From: Candidatus Saccharimonadales bacterium
GTDB lineage: Bacteria; Patescibacteriota; Saccharimonadia; Saccharimonadales; JANWIN01
Direction: 5' to 3'
Assembly: GCA_025449905.1 (NCBI GenBank)
Contig: JANWIN010000008.1
Coordinates: 4,642-68,641 of the forward strand
DNA: 64,000 nucleotides
Shown here piece by piece: positions 4,674 to 61,061 of the stretch. Each line of letters starts with the position of its first letter. Position 1 is the first letter of the stretch. The notes under the pieces are model-generated. The model made no database searches. It saw nothing but the letters and a program-made list of their open reading frames with translations, and was not told where the DNA came from. Position numbers and translations under genes: made by a program.

Positions 4674-4862
4674 ATGGCTTTTACGGAAATTTTTACCGCT
4701 TTACAAGAACCAAACACTGCGGACATTGTGATAGTCCTAAGAGGTGATCAGGCAGAGATTGATGCTTCTCGCATGGAAACGGCTAAGCATATTGCATACG
4801 TAACATCTGGAGCTTTAACACTAGAGGAACTAGAAGCTCCTCTGATAGAATATGCTGAATAA
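4674..4862 (+). CDS. orphan small acidic protein (62 aa) between tuf and rpsJ
   Basis: ATG 4674 lies 4 nt after the tuf stop, in frame with ORF 4584..4862; its stop overlaps the rpsJ start (TAATG). Confidence 0.45.
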
Positions 4863-5197
4863 TGGTTGAGACAAAAAAAACCGAAGTAGCACCAAAGCAG
4901 CGGATAAGAATCCGTCTTAAGGCTTATGACCATAAGGTTATAGATCAATCAGCAAAACAGATTGTCGACACCGCGCTAAGAAATGGTGCCACAATTGCCG
5001 GCCCAATTCCTTTGCCAACAAGGCGCAGTACTTTTACGGTTGTTAAAAGCCCGCATGTTTATAAAAAGGGCCGCGAACAATTTGAAATGAGAGTCCACAA
5101 ACGTTTAATAGACGTATTAGACCCTTCGCCAAAAACCGTTGACGCACTTATGAACCTATCCCTGCCAGCCGGCTGTGACGCCGAAATCAAAATGTAA
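4862..5197 (+). CDS. rpsJ: 30S ribosomal protein S10 (uS10)
   Basis: [18 protein letters not shown]...[23 protein letters not shown] is a typical S10 sequence. Confidence 0.95.
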
Positions 5198-5238
5198 ATT
5201 GTACAAGATATTGACGATCGTCATTTCCTTGTACAATT
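5197..5238 (+). promoter_or_regulatory. nested-palindrome promoter/operator motif, copy 1
   Basis: ATTGTACAA (5198-5206), TGACGATCGTCA 12-bp perfect palindrome (5212-5223), TTGTACAAT (5229-5237). Contains TTGACG and TACAAT hexamers. Near-identical copy at 25504-25546. Confidence 0.6.
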
Positions 5239-5274
5239 TCCTAGAGATATAAAAGTCTGTTATAGAATAAGATA

Positions 5275-5751
5275 ATGAACAAGATTGTTCCAGCCATTGA
5301 TAAGGTAGATTTAAGGCGGGGGATTGATCATATTGGTGTTTCGGCTGTTTCAGTGGTGCATGATGGCAAAGGCAAAATCTTGCTTCACAAGCGCGGTAAG
5401 GGCGCACGTGACGAGCGTGGTCACTGGGATGTAATTGGTGGTGCCATTGAGTTTGGGGAGACTATTGAAGAAGCCATTACGCGCGAAATTAAAGAAGAAC
5501 TTTGCACTAAGCCATTAGATATGGTGTTTTTAATAGTATTTGATGCGCATCGCGTCAATCAAGACAAAGATAAAACTCACTGGATAGCCATCTTGTACGC
5601 CGTGAAAGTTGAACCAAAAACAGTTAAAATAGGTGAGCCGCATAAAATGGATGCCATTGGTTGGTTTGGTCTGAAAGATTTGCCAAAACCACCGCATTCA
5701 CAACTCCACAAAGCATTAAAAGTTGCTATGCAGACTAAGATTATAATCTAG
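5275..5751 (+). CDS. NUDIX hydrolase
   Basis: NUDIX box GGAIEFGETIEEAITREIKEELC; 158 aa; inserted between rpsJ and rplC. Confidence 0.85.
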   Translation: MNKIVPAIDKVDLRRGIDHIGVSAVSVVHDGKGKILLHKRGKGARDERGHWDVIGGAIEFGETIEEAITREIKEELCTKPLDMVFLIVFDAHRVNQDKDKTHWIAILYAVKVEPKTVKIGEPHKMDAIGWFGLKDLPKPPHSQLHKALKVAMQTKIII

Positions 5752-5768
5752 GTAGTTTTTACAACGCA

Positions 5769-5932
5769 TTGACAGAGGTAGCGGTCTTTTGTTACTCTAT
5801 TACGGTATCTAAATAATTTGAGGCAACTTTGCTTGGTGAATCGGAAGGTCCGGGTCACGCTCGGAAACCAGCGGACACCAAGTATTTTAGTGCCAAAGGA
5901 TGCATTAATGCATAGAAGCATAGGAAGGGTTT
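5769..5932 (+). promoter_or_regulatory. candidate promoter plus structured leader of the rplC-led operon
   Basis: TTGACA (5769-74), 18-nt spacer, TACTCT. A 7-bp closing helix CTTGGTG...CACCAAG and the 14-bp palindrome ATGCATTAATGCAT lie just before the rplC RBS. Confidence 0.3.
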
Positions 5933-6547
5933 GTGAAAGCACTAATTGCTCAAAAGTTGGGCATGACCAGTCTTATAAACGAAAACGGAACAGCGCAAGC
6001 TGTAACTCTTCTAGCTATTGGCGACAATACAGTCGTCCAAGTTAAAACAATTGAAAAAGATGGCTACACGGCCATACAGGTTGGTGCAAACAAGGTAAAA
6101 AAGAATAGCAAGCCTTTGAGTGGGCATCTGAAGCCAGCCAAAGTGAATGTCGGTATTATGCGCGAATTTCGCGCAGACGAGATTCCAGAAGACCTCAGTG
6201 TTGGAACCAAGCTAACACCCGAGGTCTTTTCAGTTGGTGATGTCGTGTCAGTAACGGCCAACAATAAAGGCAAAGGTTTTGCCGGCACTATTAAGCGCCA
6301 TAATTTTAACACTGGGCCTAAAACTCATGGTGGCCAAAGTTATCGCCGCCCGGGCTCTATTGGCTCAATGTATCCGCAGAAGATTTTTAAAGGTAAAAAA
6401 ATGGCTGGCCGCATGGGCAATGTCCGTACCACAACCAAAAACCTCAAGATTGCCCTAGTTGACAATGAAAATCAGGTTATTGGCGTAACCGGCGCCGTTC
6501 CCGGACCAAGAAAAGGTACAGTTTTAGTGAAAGGGGCTCAAAAGTGA
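5933..6547 (+). CDS. rplC: 50S ribosomal protein L3 (uL3)
   Basis: VKALIAQKLGMTS..., GKGFAGTIKRHNF; GTG start. Confidence 0.95.
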   Translation: MKALIAQKLGMTSLINENGTAQAVTLLAIGDNTVVQVKTIEKDGYTAIQVGANKVKKNSKPLSGHLKPAKVNVGIMREFRADEIPEDLSVGTKLTPEVFSVGDVVSVTANNKGKGFAGTIKRHNFNTGPKTHGGQSYRRPGSIGSMYPQKIFKGKKMAGRMGNVRTTTKNLKIALVDNENQVIGVTGAVPGPRKGTVLVKGAQK

Positions 6548-22508: not shown

Positions 22509-23768
22509 ATGAGTAAACCGGTAATACTTACAGGTCTTAGAGCTAATAACGACCTCCACCTAGGTAATTATTTGGGGGCCTTGCTACCTATGGTTGACAT
22601 GGCTAACAAACAAGCTGGCGAGCATCAAATTAATCTGTTCGTACCTGATTTACACAGCTTTACGACACCAATCGACCATTCTAAGCTTTACCAGCAAAGC
22701 ATTGATAATGTGAAAGTCTTTGTAGCTACCGGACTTCATATCGGACACGAAAATGTACACATATACCGTCAAAGTTTTATTCCAGCCCATTCGGAGCTGG
22801 CTATCATCCTTAATAGCTTTGTGGGCGTTGGTGAAATGGAGAGAATGACACAATACAAAGAAAAGATAGCAAGTTCAGTTGAAAAAGAAAGAGAGTTCGC
22901 TAAACACCTAGAGGAGCTATTCAGAAAAAATATAAATGAAAATAACGAGGTAAATGATGCAGTGGAAAGGATGACACAGTATAAGAAAAGAATTAAAATA
23001 AATGAAAAAAAATACTTAAGCCAACAAAAATATATGCAAAGTCTATCTGACATTGTTTTAGAAACAGAAAAAGGTGACATTTTCAACATTGAAGTCAAAT
23101 CAAAAAAAGATATTGGACCATCGGTAGGCCTTTTTGATTATCCTGTGTTGATGGCGGCTGATATTCTGCTTTATGGCGCCTCATATGTGCCCGTTGGCGA
23201 TGATCAGACTCAGCATCTAGAATTTACCCGCAATATAGCTGAGCGAATGAATAAAAAGTTTGGCGAGCTGTTTGTTGTGCCAAACCCTGTTGCTGAGCAG
23301 CACAAATTCTTTGGAAAAGACCAAGGTTTGCGCATTCGCGACCTTCTAGATCCAAATAAAAAGATGAGCAAATCCGACGACACCGGCAAAGGTGTGATTT
23401 TCTTAAGTGACAAGCCCGAAGAAGCAGCAAAAAAAGTAATGTCAGCTACTACGGATAGCCTTAATAAAATTGCACTGGATTTTGAGAAGCAACCTGGAGT
23501 TAGTAATTTATTGCAAATACATGCCTTGCTTTCTGGCGAAACTCTAGACGCCGTCACTAAACATCACGGTGGGGAAACAAACTACAGCGACCTTAAAAAA
23601 GAGGTGGCAGAACAAGTTAAAGAGTTCTTAAATGACTTCCAGGCAAAACTTTCAGCTGTAAACGAGCACGAAGTTATCAAAAAGCTGGAAGCCAGCGAAG
23701 CTGAAATGAATAGACAAGCCAACGAGACCCTAGCCAAGGTTCAAAAAGCCGTAGGCCTGCGCAAATAA
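22509..23768 (+). CDS. trpS: tryptophan--tRNA ligase with a large internal insertion
   Basis: Class I HIGH-type motif (NDLHLGNYLG), KMSKS (NKKMSKSD), YPVLMAADIL. 419 aa, with a ~80-aa K/E/N-rich insert. Confidence 0.9.
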   Translation: MSKPVILTGLRANNDLHLGNYLGALLPMVDMANKQAGEHQINLFVPDLHSFTTPIDHSKLYQQSIDNVKVFVATGLHIGHENVHIYRQSFIPAHSELAIILNSFVGVGEMERMTQYKEKIASSVEKEREFAKHLEELFRKNINENNEVNDAVERMTQYKKRIKINEKKYLSQQKYMQSLSDIVLETEKGDIFNIEVKSKKDIGPSVGLFDYPVLMAADILLYGASYVPVGDDQTQHLEFTRNIAERMNKKFGELFVVPNPVAEQHKFFGKDQGLRIRDLLDPNKKMSKSDDTGKGVIFLSDKPEEAAKKVMSATTDSLNKIALDFEKQPGVSNLLQIHALLSGETLDAVTKHHGGETNYSDLKKEVAEQVKEFLNDFQAKLSAVNEHEVIKKLEASEAEMNRQANETLAKVQKAVGLRK

Positions 23769-23771
23769 CCT

Positions 23772-24632
23772 ATGTTGAGATTTATCGTTGACGACGAACA
23801 TGACGGTCAGCGCGTGGACGTTTTTGTTGCGGAAAAACTTAAAGACTTGAGCCGATCATTTATTAACCAGTTAGCCGATGATGGTAGGATAAGTATTAAT
23901 AATAAAGTCGTTAAACCAAGCCACAAGTTAAAGATTGGCGACATCATCCAAGTTGATTTTGATCTGGAAACCCTAGAAAATGTACCGAAGGTTGATTTGC
24001 CAATACTTTATGAAGACAATGACGTCTTAGTTCTTGATAAACCAGCAGGGGTCTTGACGCACAGCAAGGGCTCATATAACCCAGAAGCTACTGTTGCTAC
24101 CTTTATTAAGGACAAAATTGCAAATATGGAAGGCAACCGCGGTGGCATTGCTCATCGCCTGGACAGATTTACTTCTGGAGTAATTATTACAGCTAAAAAC
24201 CCTGAAAGTTTAAAGTGGCTTCAAAAACAATTTTCTACCCGGAAAGTCCAAAAAACCTATATTGCCGTAGTTGAAGGAAAAGTTGAGCCGCCAGAGGCCA
24301 TAATTGATATGCCAATTGAACGCAACCCAAAAAAACCGCAGACTTTTAGAACCGGGCCCAACGGCAAACCAGCAATTACTAAATATAAAACCCTAGAATC
24401 AAATGAAAAATATAGTTTATTGCAACTTAGGCCTAAGACAGGTAGAACACATCAACTGCGAGTGCACTTAAAACAGTTAAATCATCCGATTGTTGGCGAC
24501 TTACTTTATGGCGGTAAGCCAAGCGACAGGCTCTATTTGCATGCATTGAACTTGAAGTTGACTATGCCGAGCGGTGAACAACGGAAATTTGAAGCCCAAT
24601 TGCCCGATGAATTCAATAAAATGGTTAAATAG
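23772..24632 (+). CDS. rluD: RluA-family 23S rRNA pseudouridine synthase (RluD-like)
   Basis: N-terminal S4 domain, HRLDRFTSGVII catalytic motif, TGRTHQLRVH. Confidence 0.85.
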   Translation: MLRFIVDDEHDGQRVDVFVAEKLKDLSRSFINQLADDGRISINNKVVKPSHKLKIGDIIQVDFDLETLENVPKVDLPILYEDNDVLVLDKPAGVLTHSKGSYNPEATVATFIKDKIANMEGNRGGIAHRLDRFTSGVIITAKNPESLKWLQKQFSTRKVQKTYIAVVEGKVEPPEAIIDMPIERNPKKPQTFRTGPNGKPAITKYKTLESNEKYSLLQLRPKTGRTHQLRVHLKQLNHPIVGDLLYGGKPSDRLYLHALNLKLTMPSGEQRKFEAQLPDEFNKMVK

Positions 24633-24636
24633 ACTC

Positions 24637-25503
24637 ATGGATTTAGTCTTAAACCCAAAGGTTAAGGGTGAAATAGAGCAGTTTTTGAATAAACCATCGC
24701 ATGCTTTGCTGCTAGTTGGGCCCGTAGGTAGCGGGAAAAACACATTAGCAACTTATATTTCCGCCAATATCTTAGATTTAAGCGAAGAAAAGCTAAAACA
24801 TTACCCCCATTTTCTTACGCTGGAACCGGACGGACCCAGCATTTCGATAGACGACATTAGAAAGCTGCACAGCTTTGTAAGCTTGAAAACACCGGGTACA
24901 AAATCGATACGCAGAATAGTGGTAGTTCAAAACGCTCAAACTCTGACAATTGAAGCCCAAAACTCTTTTCTAAAACTCCTAGAGGAACCACCGGCTGATA
25001 CGCTATTTATTATGACCGCTTCAGATACTAATTCACTGCTACCAACGGTCTTATCAAGAGTTAGAAGATTAAACGTTTTGCCACCAGACAGAGTTAAATT
25101 TAACGATTATCTTCAAAATAAAGGTTACAAAGTCAGTGACATAGAACGAGCTTTAAATGTTTCCGGCGGACTGCCTGGGCTAGCGACAGCAATTTTAGAG
25201 GCCGATGAAGAGCACCTGCTGGTTAGTCAGATTGAACGAGCCAAGCAACTAATATCTTCAACTATGTTTGAGAGACTAAACGAAGTTAATAACCTGGCAA
25301 AGAACAAGGATGAACTTCCAACCTTATTAATGGCCATCCGGCGCGTCAGTCGAGCAATGTTAACTCAAGCTGCCGAAAAACACAGCCAAGCCGAAGTCAG
25401 AAAGTGGCACTCAATTTTATCGAATGTTGTGCGATCTGAAGACTTGCTGGGTAAAAACCCCCAGCCAAAGTTGCTACTGACTAACCTCCTCATCCAGTTT
25501 TAA
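24637..25503 (+). CDS. holB: DNA polymerase III delta' subunit
   Basis: LLLVGPVGSGKNTLA, FLKLLEEPP, LLPTVLSRVRRL. ATG 24637 lies just after the rluD stop; the ORF-track start 24574 is rejected. Confidence 0.7.
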   Translation: MDLVLNPKVKGEIEQFLNKPSHALLLVGPVGSGKNTLATYISANILDLSEEKLKHYPHFLTLEPDGPSISIDDIRKLHSFVSLKTPGTKSIRRIVVVQNAQTLTIEAQNSFLKLLEEPPADTLFIMTASDTNSLLPTVLSRVRRLNVLPPDRVKFNDYLQNKGYKVSDIERALNVSGGLPGLATAILEADEEHLLVSQIERAKQLISSTMFERLNEVNNLAKNKDELPTLLMAIRRVSRAMLTQAAEKHSQAEVRKWHSILSNVVRSEDLLGKNPQPKLLLTNLLIQF

Positions 25504-25546
25504 AATTGTACTAGATATTGACGATCGTCACGAAGTTGTACAATTT
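25504..25546 (+). promoter_or_regulatory. nested-palindrome promoter/operator motif, copy 2
   Basis: AATTGTACTAGATATTGACGATCGTCAcgaagTTGTACAATTTC. Matches copy 1 except for one arm base and the 5-nt spacer segment; 38 nt upstream of the TPR gene. Confidence 0.6.
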
Positions 25547-25582
25547 CAGGGGTGATTTGTGGGTTTGCTATAATGAAGTTGC

Positions 25583-26236
25583 ATGTTAGAACTTGCATTA
25601 GTCTTAGGCTTTGGAGCGCTGGCAGTCAGAAGCGCCAAAGTACGAGAAGATGAACTATCCCCATTGCCACGCCGTCTGAGTGACCGTATGGGCAAGCTTT
25701 GGGATATCGCCCATCAGGGCATGCGCGATAATCGGTTTTTGCGAGCTGAAAAAGCCCTTCTAACTATCCTAAAGATTGATCAAAAAAACGCAGCTGCTTA
25801 TAACCGTCTAGGCATTCTATATGCCAAACAAAAAGAATATCGAGACGCGATTGACTGTTTTGAGATAGCTTCCAGCATAGAGGCTACGCCATCGAGCCTC
25901 CATAACCTTGGCTTAATTTATTATGAAACCGAGAATTACGATAAGGCGGCTGTGGCCTTCGAGCAGGCCTTGAAGCTAGAGGATGACCTAGCCGCCAGGC
26001 ACGTGGCTTACGCCAAAGTTCAGGAAAAATTGGGTAACCATAAAATTATGCTGCAAGAGCTAGAGAAGGCGGTTGAACTAGAACCCAACCATGAAACTTT
26101 TAATTTACTTAAAAAGGCTTACGAGAACTTGGGACTTACTGAAGAGGCCAAAGCCGTTGAAAAACGGGTTGATAAAATGATTGTAACTTCAGGTAAGCGT
26201 AAGCGTATGCTTAGGCCGCGTCGAGTTGTAATCTGA
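25583..26236 (+). CDS. TPR repeat protein
   Basis: Repeated AxxYxxLGxxYxxxxxYxxAxxxFxxAL pattern; N-terminal hydrophobic segment. Confidence 0.8.
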   Translation: MLELALVLGFGALAVRSAKVREDELSPLPRRLSDRMGKLWDIAHQGMRDNRFLRAEKALLTILKIDQKNAAAYNRLGILYAKQKEYRDAIDCFEIASSIEATPSSLHNLGLIYYETENYDKAAVAFEQALKLEDDLAARHVAYAKVQEKLGNHKIMLQELEKAVELEPNHETFNLLKKAYENLGLTEEAKAVEKRVDKMIVTSGKRKRMLRPRRVVI

Positions 26237-27137: not shown

Positions 27138-27548
27138 ATGGCAAACGAAACTTTATCGCCAATGACTGACGAAGTAGCGCATTTGCGTCAGCAGCTTGCT
27201 GATACTCTAACTCATTTAGAAGAGCATCCAGAAGATGATAGTTCACTTTCTTTGTCACTATATGACTTAAGGAAAGAGGTTAGACACTATGATGCGGTTG
27301 TAAGCGGAGAAATAAGCTCCTTTCAAGTAGACTCACTTGCTGATATCCCTAAAGTACTAGTAGACGTGCGCCGGGCACGACACATGAGCCGAGTAGAGTT
27401 ATCGCAAGCGTGGGGTCTCTCAGAAGAGAATCGTCAGAGGCTTCTTGCTGATGAAGAGAACTTTTATGCCGGAATGTCTTTAGCGGGAGTTGTTTCTGCC
27501 GCAATAATTCTAGGCGCTGAGCTTAAAGGCGATATAAAGGTAGAGTAG
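27138..27548 (+). CDS. XRE-type helix-turn-helix protein (136 aa)
   Basis: C-terminal half RRARHMSRVELSQAWGLSEENRQRLLADEEN fits an HTH_XRE pattern. Confidence 0.5.
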   Translation: MANETLSPMTDEVAHLRQQLADTLTHLEEHPEDDSSLSLSLYDLRKEVRHYDAVVSGEISSFQVDSLADIPKVLVDVRRARHMSRVELSQAWGLSEENRQRLLADEENFYAGMSLAGVVSAAIILGAELKGDIKVE

Positions 27549-34394: not shown

Positions 34395-35036
34395 GTGAGT
34401 CAAAAACAAGGTCGAGTTATTGCCTTTGACGGACCGGATGGTGTTGGTAAAAGCAGCCAATTAAAACTTTTGGCCAACTACTTATTAGGAAAGGGCTATA
34501 AGGTATTTAAAACCCGCTCGGCCGGCGGAACGCCAATAGGTGTAGCTTTAAGGGCTGCTTCGCTTTTAAACGTTCCGCGCCAACCAGAAACTGATCTTTA
34601 TATTTCCTTAGCCGGTCAAACTGATGTTGGCTACCAAATTAAGAACCGTAAAAGTACAGGCGAGATTATTCTAGTGGACCGTAGCCCTTTAACAATTATT
34701 GCCTATCAAGTTTTTGCCAGTAATCTACCAATACCAAAACAGGGCTACGACGCCTGTGAAAAAATGTTAAAGTTATGGAGTATTGACGACCTAATAGTTT
34801 TTGATGCTCCAGAGTCTATACTTAAGGGCCGCCGCGACAAGCGAAAGCAGGAAGATAAATCAGCTGCCAACAACTATTTTGAACGGCAAAACGACAATTA
34901 TCACAAGCAAACCCAAGCTGGTTACCGTGAAGCGACTAAATTTGCTCAAAAACTTGGTGTTAATACTGTCAAGATTGATGCTTCGCCTACGATTGATATA
35001 ATTCAGGATGACATCCGAAATAAGCTGGGACTTTAG
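34395..35036 (+). CDS. tmk: thymidylate kinase (paralog 1)
   Basis: VIAFDGPDGVGKSSQ P-loop, DRSPLTIIAYQ; GTG start. Confidence 0.8.
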   Translation: MSQKQGRVIAFDGPDGVGKSSQLKLLANYLLGKGYKVFKTRSAGGTPIGVALRAASLLNVPRQPETDLYISLAGQTDVGYQIKNRKSTGEIILVDRSPLTIIAYQVFASNLPIPKQGYDACEKMLKLWSIDDLIVFDAPESILKGRRDKRKQEDKSAANNYFERQNDNYHKQTQAGYREATKFAQKLGVNTVKIDASPTIDIIQDDIRNKLGL

Positions 35037-35096: not shown

Positions 35097-35822
35097 TTGA
35101 GCGAGGTATTTTTGGGAGTTTATAGCAATACACAAATTAGACAAGCAATTAAAGAAGGTCATATCGTCCTTCACCCTTACAATGACAAAAACATTGCCGG
35201 TAGTAGCGTTGACGTTACCCTAGGCTATTATTTCTATCGTTTGGAGCGGCCAAGTGAGGGCGGTTTTTATAATCCATTTGATGAAAAAGCTGTTAAATCA
35301 TACTTTCGCGGTGGACCATACCACGCCGAGCCGCATGAGAAATGGGTTAAGCAACATGGCCGGCAATTATTTAAGAATATCCCGCCAAAACATCCAATCA
35401 TTGTCTTAAGGCCAGGCGAGCGCATACTTAGTCATACTCATGAATTTATAGGCATTCGAGCCCCCGGCACTAGCACTATGCAAGCCCGCAGTACCTGGGG
35501 TCGCAACGGCGTCTCGGTTTGTTTAGACGCCGGGTGGGGTGATCCTGGTTATATAAACCGCTGGACGATGGAAGTTTATAATATGAACCAATATGAAAGC
35601 GTTGTACTGCCTGTTGGTGAACGAGTCGCGCAAATGGTCTTCTACGAAACAGGCCCCGTTAGCAGCGAGTACACCAAGCTAAGCGGCAAATATCAGAGCC
35701 GCCCCAGCCAGGATCTGCAAACCATTATTAAGACTTGGTCGCCGGAACAGATGCTCCCCCGAGCTTACAAAGATAGTCGCCAGATGCCTAAAATCATCAA
35801 AGGCTTGAAAGGCTACAAGTGA
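35097..35822 (+). CDS. dcd: dCTP deaminase / dUTPase-superfamily protein
   Basis: GSSVDVTLG and an ERVAQMVF-type C-terminal segment. Start uncertain: TTG 35097, or TTG 35112 which has GAGG 5 nt upstream. Confidence 0.7.
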   Translation: MSEVFLGVYSNTQIRQAIKEGHIVLHPYNDKNIAGSSVDVTLGYYFYRLERPSEGGFYNPFDEKAVKSYFRGGPYHAEPHEKWVKQHGRQLFKNIPPKHPIIVLRPGERILSHTHEFIGIRAPGTSTMQARSTWGRNGVSVCLDAGWGDPGYINRWTMEVYNMNQYESVVLPVGERVAQMVFYETGPVSSEYTKLSGKYQSRPSQDLQTIIKTWSPEQMLPRAYKDSRQMPKIIKGLKGYK

Positions 35823-38167
35823 AACCGGCAAGTAAGAGTAGGGGTGCATTTATTGTTATTGAAGGTACTGATGGCTCGGGCAAAGGTACGCAATTTGAAT
35901 TATTGACCGAAAGGTTACGCCAAGCCGGACACCAAGTAGAGACTTTTGATTTTCCTCGTTATGATGAGCCTTCCAGCTACTTTGTGAAGGAGTACTTAAA
36001 TGGTAAATACGGCAGTTCGGAAGAGGTTGGACCTTATACCGGTTCGCTATTTTACGCGATTGACCGCTACCAAGCCGCACCGCAAATCAGGCAGGCGCTA
36101 GAAGAAGGCAAGGTTGTGCTGGCTAATCGTTTTACCGGTTCAAATATGGCTCATCAGGGTACTAAGTTTGCTTATCCTGAAGAGCGGCGCGGTTATTTTA
36201 TCTGGCTGGATAATTTGGAGTTTGAAATGCTGGGAATCCCGCGGCCGGACAGGAGTTTTGTGCTGCGCGTGCCAGCCGAGATTGCCCAGCAATTAATTGA
36301 TAGAAAGGCCGCCCGCAGTTATACCGATAAGAAGCGTGACTTGCACGAGGCTGATTTTAAGCACTTAAAGCTTTCAGTTGAGGTTTATGACGACCTATGC
36401 CGATTATTCCCGCGTGATTTTCAGCGCCTTGACTGTGTGCGCAGCGGAAAAATGATGACTAAAAGCGTAGTTGCCGACATGATTTGGAAAAATGTCGAGC
36501 CGTTGTTACCCGAGCCGATGCCTATTACCAAAGGAACTAAACCCAAGCCGCAGGTTGAAAAGCCAAAAAATCCTTATATTCACAAGACGAACGCCGGCTA
36601 CGAAATAACTTCGGAGGGTAAGCGCTTTTTGGAAGAAGCCGTAACTAATGCCAGTGGTAATGTCTATGGTTTTAAGGACAAGTTGACGGCTACAACCATA
36701 GCAGCAGCTATGGCGCGATTGAGTCGCCGCGGTGATGATATGCGCGTAACTATTTTGGACGAGTTTGCCGCCACCGAAGGCAAAGATGAAAAGCTGCTCC
36801 AGCGGGTTATAACGGCTTATGGTGATGACTCTGTTCAACAGTTGGTTGGCCAGCATATAGTTGTTGAGAACGCCTCTAACCTGCTTATAAAGAAACTGGA
36901 GTGGGGCAGGCTGGCCGCCTATCTGGAACAATCGACGCGCTACATTTATTTCGATCAAAAAGATAACGAAGGACGATACAAATATCATATCCCGGAGCAT
37001 TTTGACGAAGATACACTCCAAGTCTATGTCAAAGTCATGGATGAAATCTTTGACACTTATTCAGTTATTGTCAGAAAGGCTACAGACTATGTGCGTACTA
37101 ACTCTAAAGTTCCAAAAGATGAGCAAGATGTTGCCTGGCAAGGGGCGACTCGGGCCCAAGCTTGTGACGCCGCTCGCCATGTTCTGCCCGTAGCCACCAC
37201 TGCCACCGTGGGTATTTATGCTTCAGGCCAAGCTCTAGAAAGTCTTATCATGCACCTAATGAGCGAAGAGTTCGTTGAAGCTCGTATAACCGGACAGAAA
37301 CTCTTAGACGAAGGTCGGCAAATGATTCCAATGTTCTTGGAGCGAGCCGATAAGCCGGATCGCGGCGGCGCAGCCATTGCTTATCGAGCCAACACCAAAC
37401 AAGGCGTAAAAAAATTAGCCGAGAAATATTTACCTAATAATTTTGGTCAGCATGAAGCGCCGGTTAGGCTAACAGGCGTCTGGCCTCGCAACGAAGTGGA
37501 CTTAGTGCCAGATATGCTCTATGAGCACAGTAATTTATCGTTAGACGAGATTAAGGATTCAGTTAGTAAATGGTCATATGATAAAAAAGCTTCGGTGCTG
37601 CTGGCCTATATCGGTGAACGCTTAAACCGGCGCCACAAGCCCGGGCGAGCACTAGAAAAAGCCCATTACAGCTGGGATTTGGTTTGTGATTACGGCATCT
37701 TTCGAGATTTACAACGTCACCGCATGGTTGATGATTTAGAGTGGCAGGAGTTAACCCCTCGCTATGGCTATGAAATACCAGAGCTTATTGAAGAAGCCGG
37801 GCTAGCTGAATTATATGAAAAGTGCTTTGACATGAGCTTGGCGCTTCATAGCAAGTTACAGGCAGCTGGCTACGGGGTTGAGGCGCAATACGCTACGCTT
37901 TTGGGGCATAAAATGCGGTGGAAAATGACTTTTAATGCCCGCGAGGCATATCATTTTGTTGAACTTAGGACTTCGCCGCAGGGACACCCTGGCTACCGCA
38001 AACTAACTCAACAAATGTATGAAAAGTTAGCAGAAGTACATCCGCTACTTGCTCAGGGTATGAAGTTTGTCAATCAAGGCGAAGACGAAGAATTAACGCG
38101 TTTGGCGGCTGAAAAGTATACACAGTTTAAGCTTCAACAGATTGATCAGGCTGAGAAGAAACGCTAG
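35819..38167 (+). CDS. fusion protein: thymidylate kinase (N-terminal) plus tandem ThyX-like flavin-dependent thymidylate synthase domains
   Basis: N-terminus FIVIEGTDGSGKGTQ (Tmk). C-terminal ~550 aa carries two ThyX-like halves: WGRLAAYLEQSTRY and QRHRMVDD...TPRY, and YHFVELRTSPQGHPGYR. GTGA overlap with dcd. Confidence 0.6.
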   Translation: MKPASKSRGAFIVIEGTDGSGKGTQFELLTERLRQAGHQVETFDFPRYDEPSSYFVKEYLNGKYGSSEEVGPYTGSLFYAIDRYQAAPQIRQALEEGKVVLANRFTGSNMAHQGTKFAYPEERRGYFIWLDNLEFEMLGIPRPDRSFVLRVPAEIAQQLIDRKAARSYTDKKRDLHEADFKHLKLSVEVYDDLCRLFPRDFQRLDCVRSGKMMTKSVVADMIWKNVEPLLPEPMPITKGTKPKPQVEKPKNPYIHKTNAGYEITSEGKRFLEEAVTNASGNVYGFKDKLTATTIAAAMARLSRRGDDMRVTILDEFAATEGKDEKLLQRVITAYGDDSVQQLVGQHIVVENASNLLIKKLEWGRLAAYLEQSTRYIYFDQKDNEGRYKYHIPEHFDEDTLQVYVKVMDEIFDTYSVIVRKATDYVRTNSKVPKDEQDVAWQGATRAQACDAARHVLPVATTATVGIYASGQALESLIMHLMSEEFVEARITGQKLLDEGRQMIPMFLERADKPDRGGAAIAYRANTKQGVKKLAEKYLPNNFGQHEAPVRLTGVWPRNEVDLVPDMLYEHSNLSLDEIKDSVSKWSYDKKASVLLAYIGERLNRRHKPGRALEKAHYSWDLVCDYGIFRDLQRHRMVDDLEWQELTPRYGYEIPELIEEAGLAELYEKCFDMSLALHSKLQAAGYGVEAQYATLLGHKMRWKMTFNAREAYHFVELRTSPQGHPGYRKLTQQMYEKLAEVHPLLAQGMKFVNQGEDEELTRLAAEKYTQFKLQQIDQAEKKR

Positions 38168-38351
38168 ATTGAGGTGAATTTACCTCTTGATCGAGGTCAA
38201 TTAATCGAGATTTTCCAGATGCAAACTCTCCTAATAATAAGTTCCTCGAGCTAGCTTCAGCGTGCACGCTCGCAAGTTCTTCAGCTATTCCTGTTTGCTT
38301 ATCATCTCTGTGTGTTAAGTCTATTTCTGTGACTGCCATAACTCTTACCAA
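38127..38351 (-). CDS. hypothetical protein (74 aa), doubtful
   Basis: Convergent ORF overlapping the 3' end of the tmk-thyX fusion by 41 nt; no motif. Confidence 0.2.
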   Translation of the reverse strand: MVRVMAVTEIDLTHRDDKQTGIAEELASVHAEASSRNLLLGEFASGKSRLIDLDQEVNSPQSSVSSQPDQSVEA

Positions 38352-38591: not shown

Positions 38592-39761
38592 ATGAGTGAA
38601 GTTAATCTAACAATTTTTGATACAACCTTGCGTGATGGAGCACAATCGTTGCCTGAGCAAAATCAGTTTCCGAAAGGAACAAAGGCTGATATTGCCGGTG
38701 AAATAGCTGCTTTGGGCATAGGTGTCATAGAAGCAGGATTCCCTAGAACAGTTGGCGATGCAGACGAAGTACGTATGGTGTCTAAGCTAGTGGGTAACAA
38801 TGAATATGCTATTTCTGAATGGCGCAATAACCACGCTGTTGGCAAGGTAGGCGCTACCCCAACTATTGCGGGGCTTTGCCGAACAACCCGCAGGGACATT
38901 GATGTGGCCTGGGAGGCTGTACAGGATGCTATATTCCCGCGAATTCACACATTCGTGTCGACAGATAGAGAGCACATGGCAGCAAAATTTCCGGGCAAAA
39001 CACCAGAAGAAGTACACCTAATGGGTCGAGATGCAGTTATGCACGCCAAATCATTGATGATTGACAGGCCCCAAGCAACAGTGGAATTTTCGGCAGAGGC
39101 GGCTAGTACCACAGAAGAAAAATACTTAGAAGGAGTAATGAAGTCAGCTGTTGATGAAGGAGCTGATGTAATTAATGTACCCGACACCGTTGGCCAGCGT
39201 AATCCATTCTGGATGCGTGATTTCTATAGTCGAGTAATTGATTGGGTAGTAAGGGCAAATCCTGATGTAACAATTTCAGCTCATAACCACAACGATCTAG
39301 CTATGGCAACTGCCAATAGTTTTAGCTTGGTTAGTGCAGCTGCCGAATACGCCAAAATACAAGCTAAGCCAATAAATATTCAAATAGAAACTACTATTTC
39401 TGGTCTGGGTGAACGAGCTGGGAATGCTGATGTCTTCTCAGTTGCAGCCAGTATTTTTAAATTTGCCGAAGATCTCCCAGTTGATATTTATTGGCGTTTT
39501 AACCCTGAAAGATCTGTAAAAACCGCCAATCGCGTACTAAGTATGGCTGGTATCGAGGTCCACAGGCAAGCTCCGGTTGTTGGCCGAGATACGCTAGTAC
39601 ACCGTTCTGGAATTCATAGTGATGGTGTCATAAAAGGGGGTCATCGTATATACACCCCCCATGACCCAACCTTCTGGGGCCAAGGCGCCGATGCTATACA
39701 CGAAGAAGGTAGGTATCAGGGTAAGAGTGGACGAGCAGCCATTGCCCGAACATCCCAATAG
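38592..39761 (+). CDS. short 2-isopropylmalate / citramalate / homocitrate synthase family protein (HMGL-like)
   Basis: DTTLRDGAQS, HNHNDLAMATANS, GLGERAGNADV, HRSGIHSDGVIK. 389 aa with no LeuA C-terminal regulatory domain; strong SD aaggag. Confidence 0.8.
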   Translation: MSEVNLTIFDTTLRDGAQSLPEQNQFPKGTKADIAGEIAALGIGVIEAGFPRTVGDADEVRMVSKLVGNNEYAISEWRNNHAVGKVGATPTIAGLCRTTRRDIDVAWEAVQDAIFPRIHTFVSTDREHMAAKFPGKTPEEVHLMGRDAVMHAKSLMIDRPQATVEFSAEAASTTEEKYLEGVMKSAVDEGADVINVPDTVGQRNPFWMRDFYSRVIDWVVRANPDVTISAHNHNDLAMATANSFSLVSAAAEYAKIQAKPINIQIETTISGLGERAGNADVFSVAASIFKFAEDLPVDIYWRFNPERSVKTANRVLSMAGIEVHRQAPVVGRDTLVHRSGIHSDGVIKGGHRIYTPHDPTFWGQGADAIHEEGRYQGKSGRAAIARTSQ

Positions 39762-39762
39762 C

Positions 39763-39897
39763 TTGACATACCCCTATAGATATTTAAAATACTATCTATG
39801 GCTCAAACAACAATTATTAAAATTATTCGAGATTCCGTCTAGCGCGGTAGAGCTTTTATTTGTCAACAAACAGCTCCGCGCAGGGGCTGTTTTAAAT
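39763..39897 (+). promoter_or_regulatory. Thr/Ile-rich leader peptide attenuator candidate
   Basis: TTGACA (39763-68), 16-nt spacer, TAAAAT (39785-90), 7 nt, then ORF 39798-39842 MAQTTIIKIIRDSV. Mutually exclusive hairpins 39842-81 and 39868-92. Confidence 0.5.
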
Positions 39898-39909
39898 ATG
39901 AGGAGGACG

Positions 39910-40137
39910 ATGGAAGGTCAAATAAGCGAACCTGTTTCTAGCCAAGAACCAATAGTAGACCCTGAAGTCTATAGGCTACTTGAAATTGGTGAAAAACTTA
40001 AAGCCTTTGGCCTATTAAGTCGAGAGATAAGACTTGAGCTTATACACGGTGCGCCTTGTGGCGAACAATGGAGTGTCAGGCTAATGCGCTGGTACCCGAA
40101 ACCAACGGTTGACGAAACATCTGAATCTAATCTATAA
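39910..40137 (+). CDS. hypothetical protein (75 aa)
   Basis: ATG 39910 preceded by AGGAGG at 4 nt. The longer ORF-track frame (39661) runs through the leuA-family 3' end and the leader region. Confidence 0.45.
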   Translation: MEGQISEPVSSQEPIVDPEVYRLLEIGEKLKAFGLLSREIRLELIHGAPCGEQWSVRLMRWYPKPTVDETSESNL

Positions 40138-40139
40138 TA

Positions 40140-40234
40140 TACTGGTTACCAGAGACAGTGGCGGCGAAAGCTTAATTATGCCACCGAGGTAGAAACAACT
40201 TTTCTATGTCTTTGGTATGCGCCAAAGATTTTTT
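40140..40234 (+). promoter_or_regulatory. rplJ (L10) leader-like structured 5' region with terminator-type hairpin
   Basis: GTGGC...GCCAC helix (40159-40185). TCTTTGG/tatgcg/CCAAAGA plus T6 (40209-40234), 16 nt before the rplJ ATG. L10-leader autoregulation is known in other bacteria. Confidence 0.45.
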
Positions 40235-40250
40235 AATTTTAAGAGGTAAG

Positions 40251-59839: not shown

Positions 59840-59945
59840 GCTAATTCAAGGGTAAGCCGAGTTGTCTTATATAACCGCTCGGCATCAACATTAAATGCGG
59901 CGGTTGCCGCCTCTCGCAGAGAGTAAAGAAGGAGTTTTATTACTC

Positions 59946-61061
59946 ATGAAAGCAAAGCTTTTTAATCAAGATTTACTAACCAAGAGTTTATTGGTTGTTC
60001 TAGCCTTACTATTAGTATGGTTTGTAATGTTTTTATTCGACATGCCCAAGAAAACCAACGGTGTTGTTCTGGGCGAATCAGCCAGCGTAGTCAGTGGCAC
60101 ACAAGGTCCACAGGGGATCCCCGGTTTAGACGGTCTTCAAGGAGTACAGGGAATACAAGGTATTCAGGGCGTCGCTGGCGTTAACGGCCAAGACGGTAAA
60201 GATGGAAACGATGGCGCAACTGGCGCTCAAGGTGTTCAGGGAGTTCAAGGTGAAACTGGTGCTCAGGGCGCACAAGGTCCACAGGGTGACACTGGTCAAA
60301 CTGGTGCTCAGGGACCACAGGGTGTTCAAGGTGTAAAAGGTGACACCGGAGCAACCGGTGCGCAAGGTCCGCAGGGCGACACTGGTGCTACCGGCGCTCA
60401 AGGTCCTCAAGGTGATAAAGGTGATATTGGTTTAACCGGTCCTCAAGGTGTTCAGGGTGAAACCGGTCCACAGGGAATTCAAGGTCCTATCGGTTTAACC
60501 GGTGCACAAGGACCACAGGGAATTCAAGGTCCTCAGGGTGACACCGGTCTTCAAGGTCCAACTGGTCAAACCGGTGCTATTGGTCTTACTGGTCCTCAAG
60601 GTCCAGCCGGAATCCAAGGTCCTATTGGCTTAACTGGCCCAACTGGTGCTACTGGTGCGCAAGGTCCTATCGGCTTAACAGGTCCAACCGGTCCTGCCGG
60701 TGCTACTGGTGCGCAAGGTCCTATTGGTCTAACCGGTCCCCAGGGTCCAGCTGGTCCAGCTGGTGCTGCCGGAGCCAACGCTTCAGCTTCACTAGAAACT
60801 GTTACTGCCACCTCAGGTACCGCAACTGGTTCGCCAGAAACTGCTTCTGCAACAGTTAGCTGTACGGGTTCTAAAAAGATCCTAGGCGGTGGCTACTTAG
60901 TTAACGCTGGTGTCGCTTCAGCCTCTAACAACCCAGGTGAAGTTAGCGTTGTGGAAAACCGTGCCGCTAGCGCTACTAGCTGGATAGTTCGAGCCTTCAC
61001 TGATAACAGCGGTGACGTAGGTAGCTGGACAATTACGGCTTACGCAATTTGTAGCCTGTAA
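59946..61061 (+). CDS. membrane-anchored collagen-like (G-X-Y repeat) protein with 94-aa C-terminal globular domain
   Basis: About 75 uninterrupted G-X-Y triplets (nt 60096-60776). N-terminal anchor [17 protein letters not shown]. The alternative in-frame ATG 59895 lacks an SD. Confidence 0.85.

Follow-up and report, generated by a model that had tools for sequence, protein, structure and literature searches.

A twice-occurring nested palindrome upstream of two leaderless promoters in a Saccharimonadales genome: a candidate cluster of protein-binding dyads

Introduction

What is a 44-bp nested palindrome doing twice in one compact bacterial chromosome, each time between a stop codon and the start of a housekeeping gene? 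The repeat lies in a 64-kb stretch of the genome of a Candidatus Saccharimonadales bacterium (Patescibacteria; assembly GCA_025449905.1, contig JANWIN010000008.1), hereafter the window, and precedes genes for a NUDIX hydrolase and a tetratricopeptide repeat (TPR) protein. A preliminary description of this DNA took the repeat to be the promoter of both genes with an overlapping operator, the two sites forming a small regulon of a dimeric DNA-binding protein. Gene regulation in Patescibacteria, which have tiny genomes and few regulators and are hard to grow, is almost unexplored. A protein-bound cassette that can be copied would be a concrete, testable case of such genomes acquiring regulation, and would hint at housekeeping genes being targets of antitoxin-type repressors, while a selfish palindrome or a hairpin would be an ordinary genomic feature. 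We favour, with a probability of about 40%, a cluster of protein-binding dyads that is specific to this lineage and has been copied, and that would sit a short way upstream of the leaderless promoters which the two housekeeping genes already have.

Sequence and anatomy of the repeat

The two copies occupy positions 5197–5240 (AATTGTACAAGATATTGACGATCGTCATTTCCTTGTACAATTTC) and 25504–25547 (AATTGTACTAGATATTGACGATCGTCACGAAGTTGTACAATTTC) of the forward strand, slightly more than the spans 5197–5238 and 25504–25546 first assigned to them. They are identical at 38 of 44 positions, and a repeat finder returned both as one 45-nt family (D3) at 87% identity. Each unit is laid out as TTGTACAA-N5-TGACGATCGTCA-N5-TTGTACAA, a perfect 12-bp palindrome between two 8-mer outer boxes. 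In copy 1, the left outer box lies at 5199–5206, the central palindrome at 5212–5223 (reading TTGAC-GATC-GTCA when the preceding T is included) and the right outer box at 5229–5236, and the 12-nt outer arms (5196–5207 and 5228–5239) are perfectly complementary. The corresponding boxes of copy 2 lie at 25506–25513, 25519–25530 and 25536–25543. Adjacent box centres are 15 bp apart, which places the outer centres 30 bp from one another (5202.5 versus 5232.5, and likewise in copy 2) rather than the 31 bp or so estimated initially.

All boxes are self-complementary apart from the left box of copy 2, TTGTACTA, which has one mismatch to TTGTACAA; the self-complementarity claimed for the flanking boxes thus applies to copy 1 and to the right box of copy 2. 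This base and the entire right spacer (TTTCC in copy 1, CGAAG in copy 2; five of five positions) account for the six differences between the copies, while the left spacer and the flanks are the same in both. The preliminary description had seen the spacer differences but not the sixth, in the left box. It was accurate in reporting embedded sigma-70-like hexamers, TTGACG and TACAAT with a 15-nt spacer, in both copies: they lie on the forward strand at 5211–5216 and 5232–5237 in copy 1, where the right box and the T that follows it make up TACAAT, and at 25518–25523 and 25539–25544 in copy 2.

The repeat is real and non-random, and chance is excluded. Both sequences originally quoted are present in the window, and a search of its two strands for TTGACGATCGTCA-N5-TTGTACAAT with up to three mismatches returned these two sites alone, compared with 0.00 matches in 100 dinucleotide-preserving shuffles. 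The longest and second-longest palindromes of the 64 kb (I1 and I2) are the two copies. Searches of the window that tolerated three mismatches, or eight over the 28 box positions, brought up no third copy. An Rfam search gave no family at or near the motif, either in the window or on the metagenomic contig described below. In the literature, TGACGATCGTCA was found in no paper and TTGTACAA alone led to Gateway att primers. To our knowledge, the motif bears no likeness to the GAAC-type LexA box. Avoidance of restriction sites was considered and set aside, as TGTACA and CGATCG are not depleted but occur in the window at their expected counts; GATC, on the other hand, is under-represented, with 118 occurrences compared with approximately 167 expected from trinucleotide counts. 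A further nested palindrome centred on GATC (TTGATCGAGGTCAA, within a longer hairpin) is found at 38168–38215, about 20 nt past the stop codon of a gene encoding a fused thymidylate kinase–ThyX protein.

Position relative to native promoters

Both units begin 1–2 nt past the stop codon of the upstream gene: rpsJ, encoding ribosomal protein S10 (4862–5197, forward strand; PF00338, E = 3.7e-35; TAA at 5195–5197), for copy 1, and holB, encoding DNA polymerase III delta' (24574–25503, forward strand; PF13177; TAA at 25501–25503, 1 nt before the unit), for copy 2. They end 34 nt before the ATG of the NUDIX gene (5275–5751, forward strand) and 35 nt before that of the TPR gene (25583–26236, forward strand), which encodes a 217-aa protein highly conserved across Saccharimonadales. 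Both start codons had been placed correctly, although the distance to them had been put at 37–38 nt.

The 45 nt upstream of 76 window genes were listed and scored for promoter and ribosome-binding features. A −10-like hexamer ending 4–12 nt before the start codon is present at 16 of the 76 genes, compared with 3.7% of random positions, and none of these 16 has a Shine–Dalgarno sequence. Another 31 of the 76 have a Shine–Dalgarno sequence without such a −10 element, so that the two classes never overlap. This suggests that leaderless mRNAs are widespread in this Saccharimonadales genome; about a fifth of window genes have a leaderless layout with a −10 element beside the ATG, which matters for promoter annotation in this group. 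Examples of this class are the genes starting at 22509, 27138, 27631, 34395, 42259, 47670 and 4862, and its −10 elements are often TGn-extended.

The NUDIX and TPR genes both belong to the leaderless class. For NUDIX, the native −10 region is TGtTATAGAAT (5258–5268, forward strand), in which TAGAAT ends 6 nt before the ATG, with no Shine–Dalgarno sequence. For TPR, it is the extended −10 element TGcTATAAT (25566–25574, forward strand), ending 8 nt before the ATG. From the end of the right box to the native −10 element is 26–27 nt at both sites. Since both genes have start-adjacent −10 elements of their own, the palindrome would occupy about −78 to −35 relative to the starts expected from them. 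The embedded hexamers each match consensus at five of six positions, and their 15-nt spacer falls outside the 16–18-nt sigma-70 range; they were not reported by a consensus promoter scan with 16–18-nt spacers. Of the full promoters in the window, TTGACA-17-TATAAT is the clearest. A transcript from the embedded hexamers would carry a leader of approximately 30 nt without a ribosome-binding site, a class otherwise unseen in the window. The proposal that the motif is itself the promoter of NUDIX and TPR consequently fares poorly, given the 15-nt spacer and the leaderless −10 elements, without Shine–Dalgarno sequences, that the two genes already possess.

Absence from relatives

Six relatives were sampled at the orthologous spacers, two at the NUDIX locus (L017 and L018) and four at the TPR locus (L019–L022). 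None of the six carries the palindrome. The S10–NUDIX–L3 gene order is kept in L017 and L018, whose NUDIX proteins are 75% and 71% identical to that of the window. In L018, the rpsJ–NUDIX spacer is only 12 bp long (TAA-TACAAT-ttaggt-ATG), with TACAAT 6 nt before the ATG; it is the one relative with a clear −10-like hexamer at the NUDIX position. In L017, another open reading frame (ORF) intervenes. The holB–TPR order is kept in L019 and L020 (TPR proteins 95% identical) and in L022 (84%), while L021 (88%) has the same arrangement by alignment, with the ORF upstream of TPR not annotated. All four of these palindrome-free relatives have TGnTATAAT 9–10 nt before the TPR ATG.

DNA identity with the nearest relative (TPR protein 95% identical) is approximately 69% over the 2.4-kb holB–TPR region aligned, so that the spacers cannot be aligned base by base. 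For this reason a precise empty-site argument was toned down; the absence from all relatives and the retained −10 element stand. Because the unit is missing from every sampled relative while the native −10 element is kept, it looks, on this sequence comparison, like a lineage-specific gain and not a conserved operator. A conserved regulon is not supported by these data, and scans of genomes, metagenomes and viral contigs yielded a single further carrier, in which no gene follows the motif. The preliminary description had named an absence of conservation in relatives as evidence against its idea, and that is largely what the six relatives show.

The holB–TPR spacer of L021 contains a different insert of about 60 bp (L021 positions 895–995) with a hairpin and a T-run, and this spacer seems to accept insertions repeatedly.

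A third copy in a distant lineage

The exact pattern TGACGATCGTCA-N5-TTGTACA, with 19 fixed bases, was searched for in 185,579 GTDB species, each represented by one genome (596 Gb in all; the source genome itself lies outside this set). Four loci were returned, in Gemmatimonadales and Methanomethylophilaceae, where approximately four are expected by chance, and no genome of the candidate phyla radiation (CPR) among the 185,579 species representatives carried the exact pattern. Several metagenome-assembled genomes of Gemmatimonadales (approx. 70% GC; L001, L004, L005, L006, L009 and L011) share an AT-rich TTGACGATCGTCAA followed by N4 and TTGTACAAT (for example at L004 6890–6920). Here TTGACGATCGTCAA is a perfect 14-bp FNR-like palindrome kept in a divergent intergenic region of these genomes, and the arrangement is probably an unrelated promoter-operator met by chance with the search pattern.

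A scan of 241 million JGI metagenome records gave 12 loci from about seven unrelated families. Only one, L008, has the second outer box in register, an event with a chance probability of approximately 1e-4 (about seven families, eight extra fixed bases), and no other CPR contig carries the exact pattern. The L008 copy reads TTGTACAA-ATATC-TGACGATCGTCA-ATTAT-TTGTACAA and was recovered in an independent assembly (L031). The closest homologues of the Fic protein on L008 carry the names Daviesbacteria or Microgenomates, which belong to another class of Patescibacteria than the window, where the NUDIX and TPR homologues bear source names pointing to Saccharimonadales. The motif is the sole nucleotide similarity between the window and L008. 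Compared with copy 1, the boxes are identical at 28 of 28 positions, whereas each spacer agrees at 0–2 of 5 positions and the flanks are unmatched. All three copies have TTGACG-N15-TACAAT on exactly one strand, which in the window is the strand facing the downstream gene. On L008, a 13-kb contig, the copy sits between convergent genes with no gene downstream.

Relatives of L008 with the same Fic–RRM order (Fic proteins 81–83% identical) do not have the motif. At this place L008 has approximately 750–815 bp of extra DNA compared with them, and the motif lies 36 nt inside its edge. Across 256 kb of loci, no further copy came to light even when 8 of the 28 box positions were allowed to differ. 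Three exact patterns gave no matches among viral contigs, and blastn of a 50-mer against plasmids and phages yielded chance matches only (E ≥ 0.3), including a 19-nt Enterococcus match inside a coding region. The motif on L008 adjoins a second tripartite palindrome, likewise centred on CGATCG (6228–6267; AGTGCACGCATTTCTTGCGA / TCGTTAAAAATGCGTACACT), and a perfect, GC-rich 22-bp palindrome is also nearby (L008 6191–6267 for this neighbourhood), all three palindromes falling in a 360-bp gap between the convergent genes.

Resemblance to known operators

The outer boxes recall operators in the toxin–antitoxin systems yefM-yoeB and axe-txe, with which they share a TGTACA core. At the core of the L repeat in E. 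coli yefM-yoeB (TCATTGTACAATGA) stands the extended form of this sequence, ATTGTACAAT, and the repeat lies over the −10 hexamer TACAAT (PMC1802561, PMC7730913), as the right box of the unit does. With one edge mismatch, ATTGTACAAT is found at 5198–5207, 5228–5237 and 25535–25544, and with two mismatches at 25505–25514. The S. aureus YefM operator seen in a crystal structure is TTATTGTACAGATATTTGTACAATTG, within which YefM dimers read ATTGTACA (PMC7544224); it shares 16 consecutive bases with the L008 copy. In yefM-yoeB operators, too, the boxes are mutually inverted and spacer sequences vary between genomes. The differences are equally clear. The centre-to-centre spacing in yefM operators is 12 bp and is described as precisely maintained (PMC1802561, PMC7730913), but it is 30 bp in the unit, which has an extra 12-bp palindrome between the boxes. 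The genes downstream of the unit encode NUDIX and TPR proteins and not a toxin–antitoxin pair, the L008 copy has no gene at all downstream, neither Pfam nor phmmer detected a YefM homologue in the window or on L008, and the unit lies upstream of a separate native promoter.

The central box resembles FNR-like sites, for which the HcpR/Anr consensus is TTGACnnnnGTCAA (PMC1274295, PMC4974557). In both window copies and in L008 it reads TTGAC-GATC-GTCA(T/C/G), a 5-4-5 dyad matching 9 of 10 specified consensus positions, and, like class II sites, it lies across a −35-like hexamer. A CRP/FNR-family protein is encoded on L008 at 1612–2289, 4 kb from its copy. However, one half-site of the unit has a base other than A at its outer end in every copy, and the centres (5217.5 and 25524.5) fall at about −26 from the inferred starts of the embedded promoter, or about −57 from those of the native promoter, rather than at −41.5 (class II) or at −61.5, −71.5 and so on (class I). 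The window ORFs that were scanned include no recognizable CRP/FNR gene, and three more FNR-like sites occur in the window at up to one mismatch, about the chance level. A class II geometry relative to TATAAA at 5248–5253, which fits copy 1, was rejected because nothing equivalent exists at copy 2. Both the yefM and the FNR likenesses are resemblances, not memberships.

Interpretation and alternatives

Boxes kept at 28 of 28 positions between spacers that are unrelated favour recognition by dimeric DNA-binding proteins, and sequence-specific protein recognition is the best fit to such strict box conservation. A dimeric DNA-binding protein, as put forward in the preliminary description, therefore still appears reasonable: the boxes have dyad symmetry, the outer ones match the YefM operator core and the central one is FNR/HcpR-like. 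An 8-mer is self-complementary by chance in 1 of 256 cases, and a hairpin does not need outer boxes that are self-complementary. The lone box difference in copy 2 breaks a pair with no compensating change, and the asymmetry of the spacers, with the right one wholly different and the left one and the flanks the same, would fit a role at the DNA level.

We envisage that dimeric, sequence-specific proteins bind the three boxes, with one dimer on each ATTGTACAAT-type outer dyad in the manner of Phd/YefM-family antitoxins, and that a second specificity recognizes the central TTGAC-N4-GTCA dyad in the manner of CRP/FNR-family regulators. The bound complex would cover the weak embedded promoter (TTGACG, 15 nt, TACAAT) and stand immediately upstream of the native −10 promoters. 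Rather than providing the primary promoter, it might modulate or insulate the NUDIX and TPR genes, either through occlusion or by forming a roadblock against read-through. The unit may have spread as a block, within the genome or horizontally, which would explain why a distant CPR lineage has the same boxes while close relatives are without them. The repeat with its layout and placement, the native promoters, the absence from relatives and the third copy are what the sequences show; that proteins bind, which ones they are, how they affect regulation and how the unit spread, we infer.

Several observations weigh against this scheme. When the tested window ORFs were scanned with Pfam and NCBIfam, no YefM/Phd or CRP/FNR gene was found, and phmmer with E. 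coli YefM gave a best E-value of 0.88 across the window and L008. One ORF near copy 2 (27138–27548), with a C-terminal helix-turn-helix by eye, was considered as the regulator and dropped, as Pfam, NCBIfam and PDB sequence searches were empty; its AlphaFold model was unusable (predicted local distance difference test score, pLDDT, 43). The outer dyads are 30 bp apart in place of the precisely maintained 12 bp of yefM operators, the unit is centred at about −57 relative to the expected start, which is no canonical class I or class II CRP/FNR position, and the L008 copy, between convergent genes and beside other palindromes, has nothing to regulate. With three copies known, two of them related by descent, few independent observations stand behind the conservation argument. 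A bolder version, that the unit is a portable operator cassette of two YefM-like dyads and one FNR-like dyad, moving between Patescibacteria lineages and, when it inserts in the gap that separates a stop codon from a leaderless promoter, placing housekeeping genes under a regulator from a toxin–antitoxin or other mobile module, strikes us as improbable; were it true, it would mean that regulons grow by operator transposition in very small genomes. For the tripartite layout, in which YefM-type dyads with a 30-bp spacing frame an FNR-like one and which is common to two distant CPR lineages, we found no described counterpart.

The strongest competitor to a cluster of protein-binding dyads, though on balance still unlikely, is a selfish or neutral unit similar to repetitive extragenic palindromic (REP) elements or miniature inverted-repeat transposable elements, which an enzyme encoded at another locus would copy into the spacers between genes; the boxes would then be the recognition sites of that enzyme and any regulation incidental. 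The unit is missing from the sampled relatives at both loci despite the kept gene order, and its spread is patchy, in two distant CPR lineages and absent from the relatives of both. The boundaries of the window copies are identical and coincide with the palindrome ends, both copies lie directly after stop codons, and the L008 copy is 36 nt from the edge of the extra DNA, beside two palindromes and between convergent genes. Like REP elements and bacterial interspersed mosaic elements (BIMEs), the unit is an imperfect palindrome of tens of bp that is strictly intergenic, follows stop codons immediately on their 3' side, varies in presence between related genomes and, in L008, is clustered with other palindromes. 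In both window copies, GTAC...GTAC has AATT on either side, a candidate target duplication, but AATT is itself palindromic and absent at L008, which leaves the duplication unproven. Unlike that of these elements, the copy number of the unit is very low in everything scanned: two in 64 kb, none more in the 256 kb of loci, and the full exact pattern on a single contig among the 241 million metagenome records, with none of the 185,579 species representatives that are CPR genomes carrying it. It lacks a GTAG-type head, no RAYT gene is in view, and domain scans of the window ORFs found no transposase, RAYT or recombinase. The sequence of its boxes is conserved across CPR classes, and a transposon end does not need self-complementary outer boxes. 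In the model of the preliminary description, the unit itself would be a promoter (TTGACG, 15 nt, TACAAT) with overlapping operators, and NUDIX and TPR a small regulon of one dimeric repressor. We regard this as distinctly less probable than mobility. All three copies do have the hexamers on one strand, facing the downstream gene in the window; both units stand equally far from the start codon that follows; and in the E. coli yefM promoter, TTGTACAAT is both −10 element and operator. Yet the 15-nt spacer compares with 17 nt in the clearest promoter of the window, and the leader of about 30 nt without a Shine–Dalgarno sequence has no parallel among genes that have either a Shine–Dalgarno sequence (31 of 76) or a start-adjacent −10 element (16 of 76) and never both. 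NUDIX and TPR already have such −10 elements, that of TPR being kept in unit-free relatives, the orthologous sites show no conservation, and nothing lies downstream of the L008 copy.

Least probable among the rivals, by a little, is that the palindrome acts as RNA, folding into a stem-loop at the 3' ends of the rpsJ and holB mRNAs that terminates transcription or protects the 3' end and so insulates the next promoter. A stem-loop right after a stop codon is what an intrinsic terminator looks like, and the predicted folds are stable for copy 1 (−17.1 kcal/mol, z = −4.8) and L008 (−20.9 kcal/mol, z = −6.0). The unrelated hairpin with a T-run at the holB–TPR spacer of L021, and another hairpin that abuts the rpsJ −10 element, also agree with this idea. 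But the unit has an AT-rich outer stem and no U-tract (its tail is UUUC), and it was not reported by a terminator scan, while the clear terminators of the window have GC-rich stems and 6–7 U. The forward strand of copy 2 folds at −11.4 kcal/mol (z = −1.1), no better than shuffles, and its single stem difference is uncompensated. Beyond pairing, the sequence of the boxes is conserved between distant lineages, and a stem does not call for self-complementary outer arms. A pure RNA hairpin or terminator is thus unlikely.

Other features of the window

The window is part of a compact bacterial chromosome, and one strand carries nearly all of the genes. Among those present are fusA, tuf, rpsJ, the S10, spc and alpha ribosomal operons, secY, secE-nusG-rplK-rplA, rplJ-rplL, dnaX, dnaB and recR. 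A phage origin was rejected, as megablast gave no match to phage records and chromosomal genes (the str, S10, spc and alpha operons, secY and dnaB) are present.

The NUDIX gene lies between rpsJ (S10) and rplC (L3; window 4862–6547) and splits the usual S10 operon, as it does in the relatives L017 and L018. The 181-nt spacer that precedes rplC (5752–5932) has a strong predicted fold (−48 kcal/mol) and opens with TTGACA-18-TACTCT. It could be a ribosomal-protein leader; Rfam gave no match to this spacer. Upstream of rplJ, the L10 leader (Rfam RF00557, 66 bits) was recognized at 40131–40244, overlapping the end of a doubtful ORF at 39661–40137.

The thymidylate kinase–ThyX fusion mentioned above is encoded by an ORF of 782 aa (35819–38167), with the thymidylate kinase domain at residues 14–172 and ThyX at 591–742. 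Approximately 400 residues between the two have no assigned domain, and a separate thymidylate kinase gene is present at 34395–35036. Finally, a gene at 59895–61061 with periodic repeats of 9, 36 and 45 nt (family D1) encodes a collagen-like triple-helix repeat protein.

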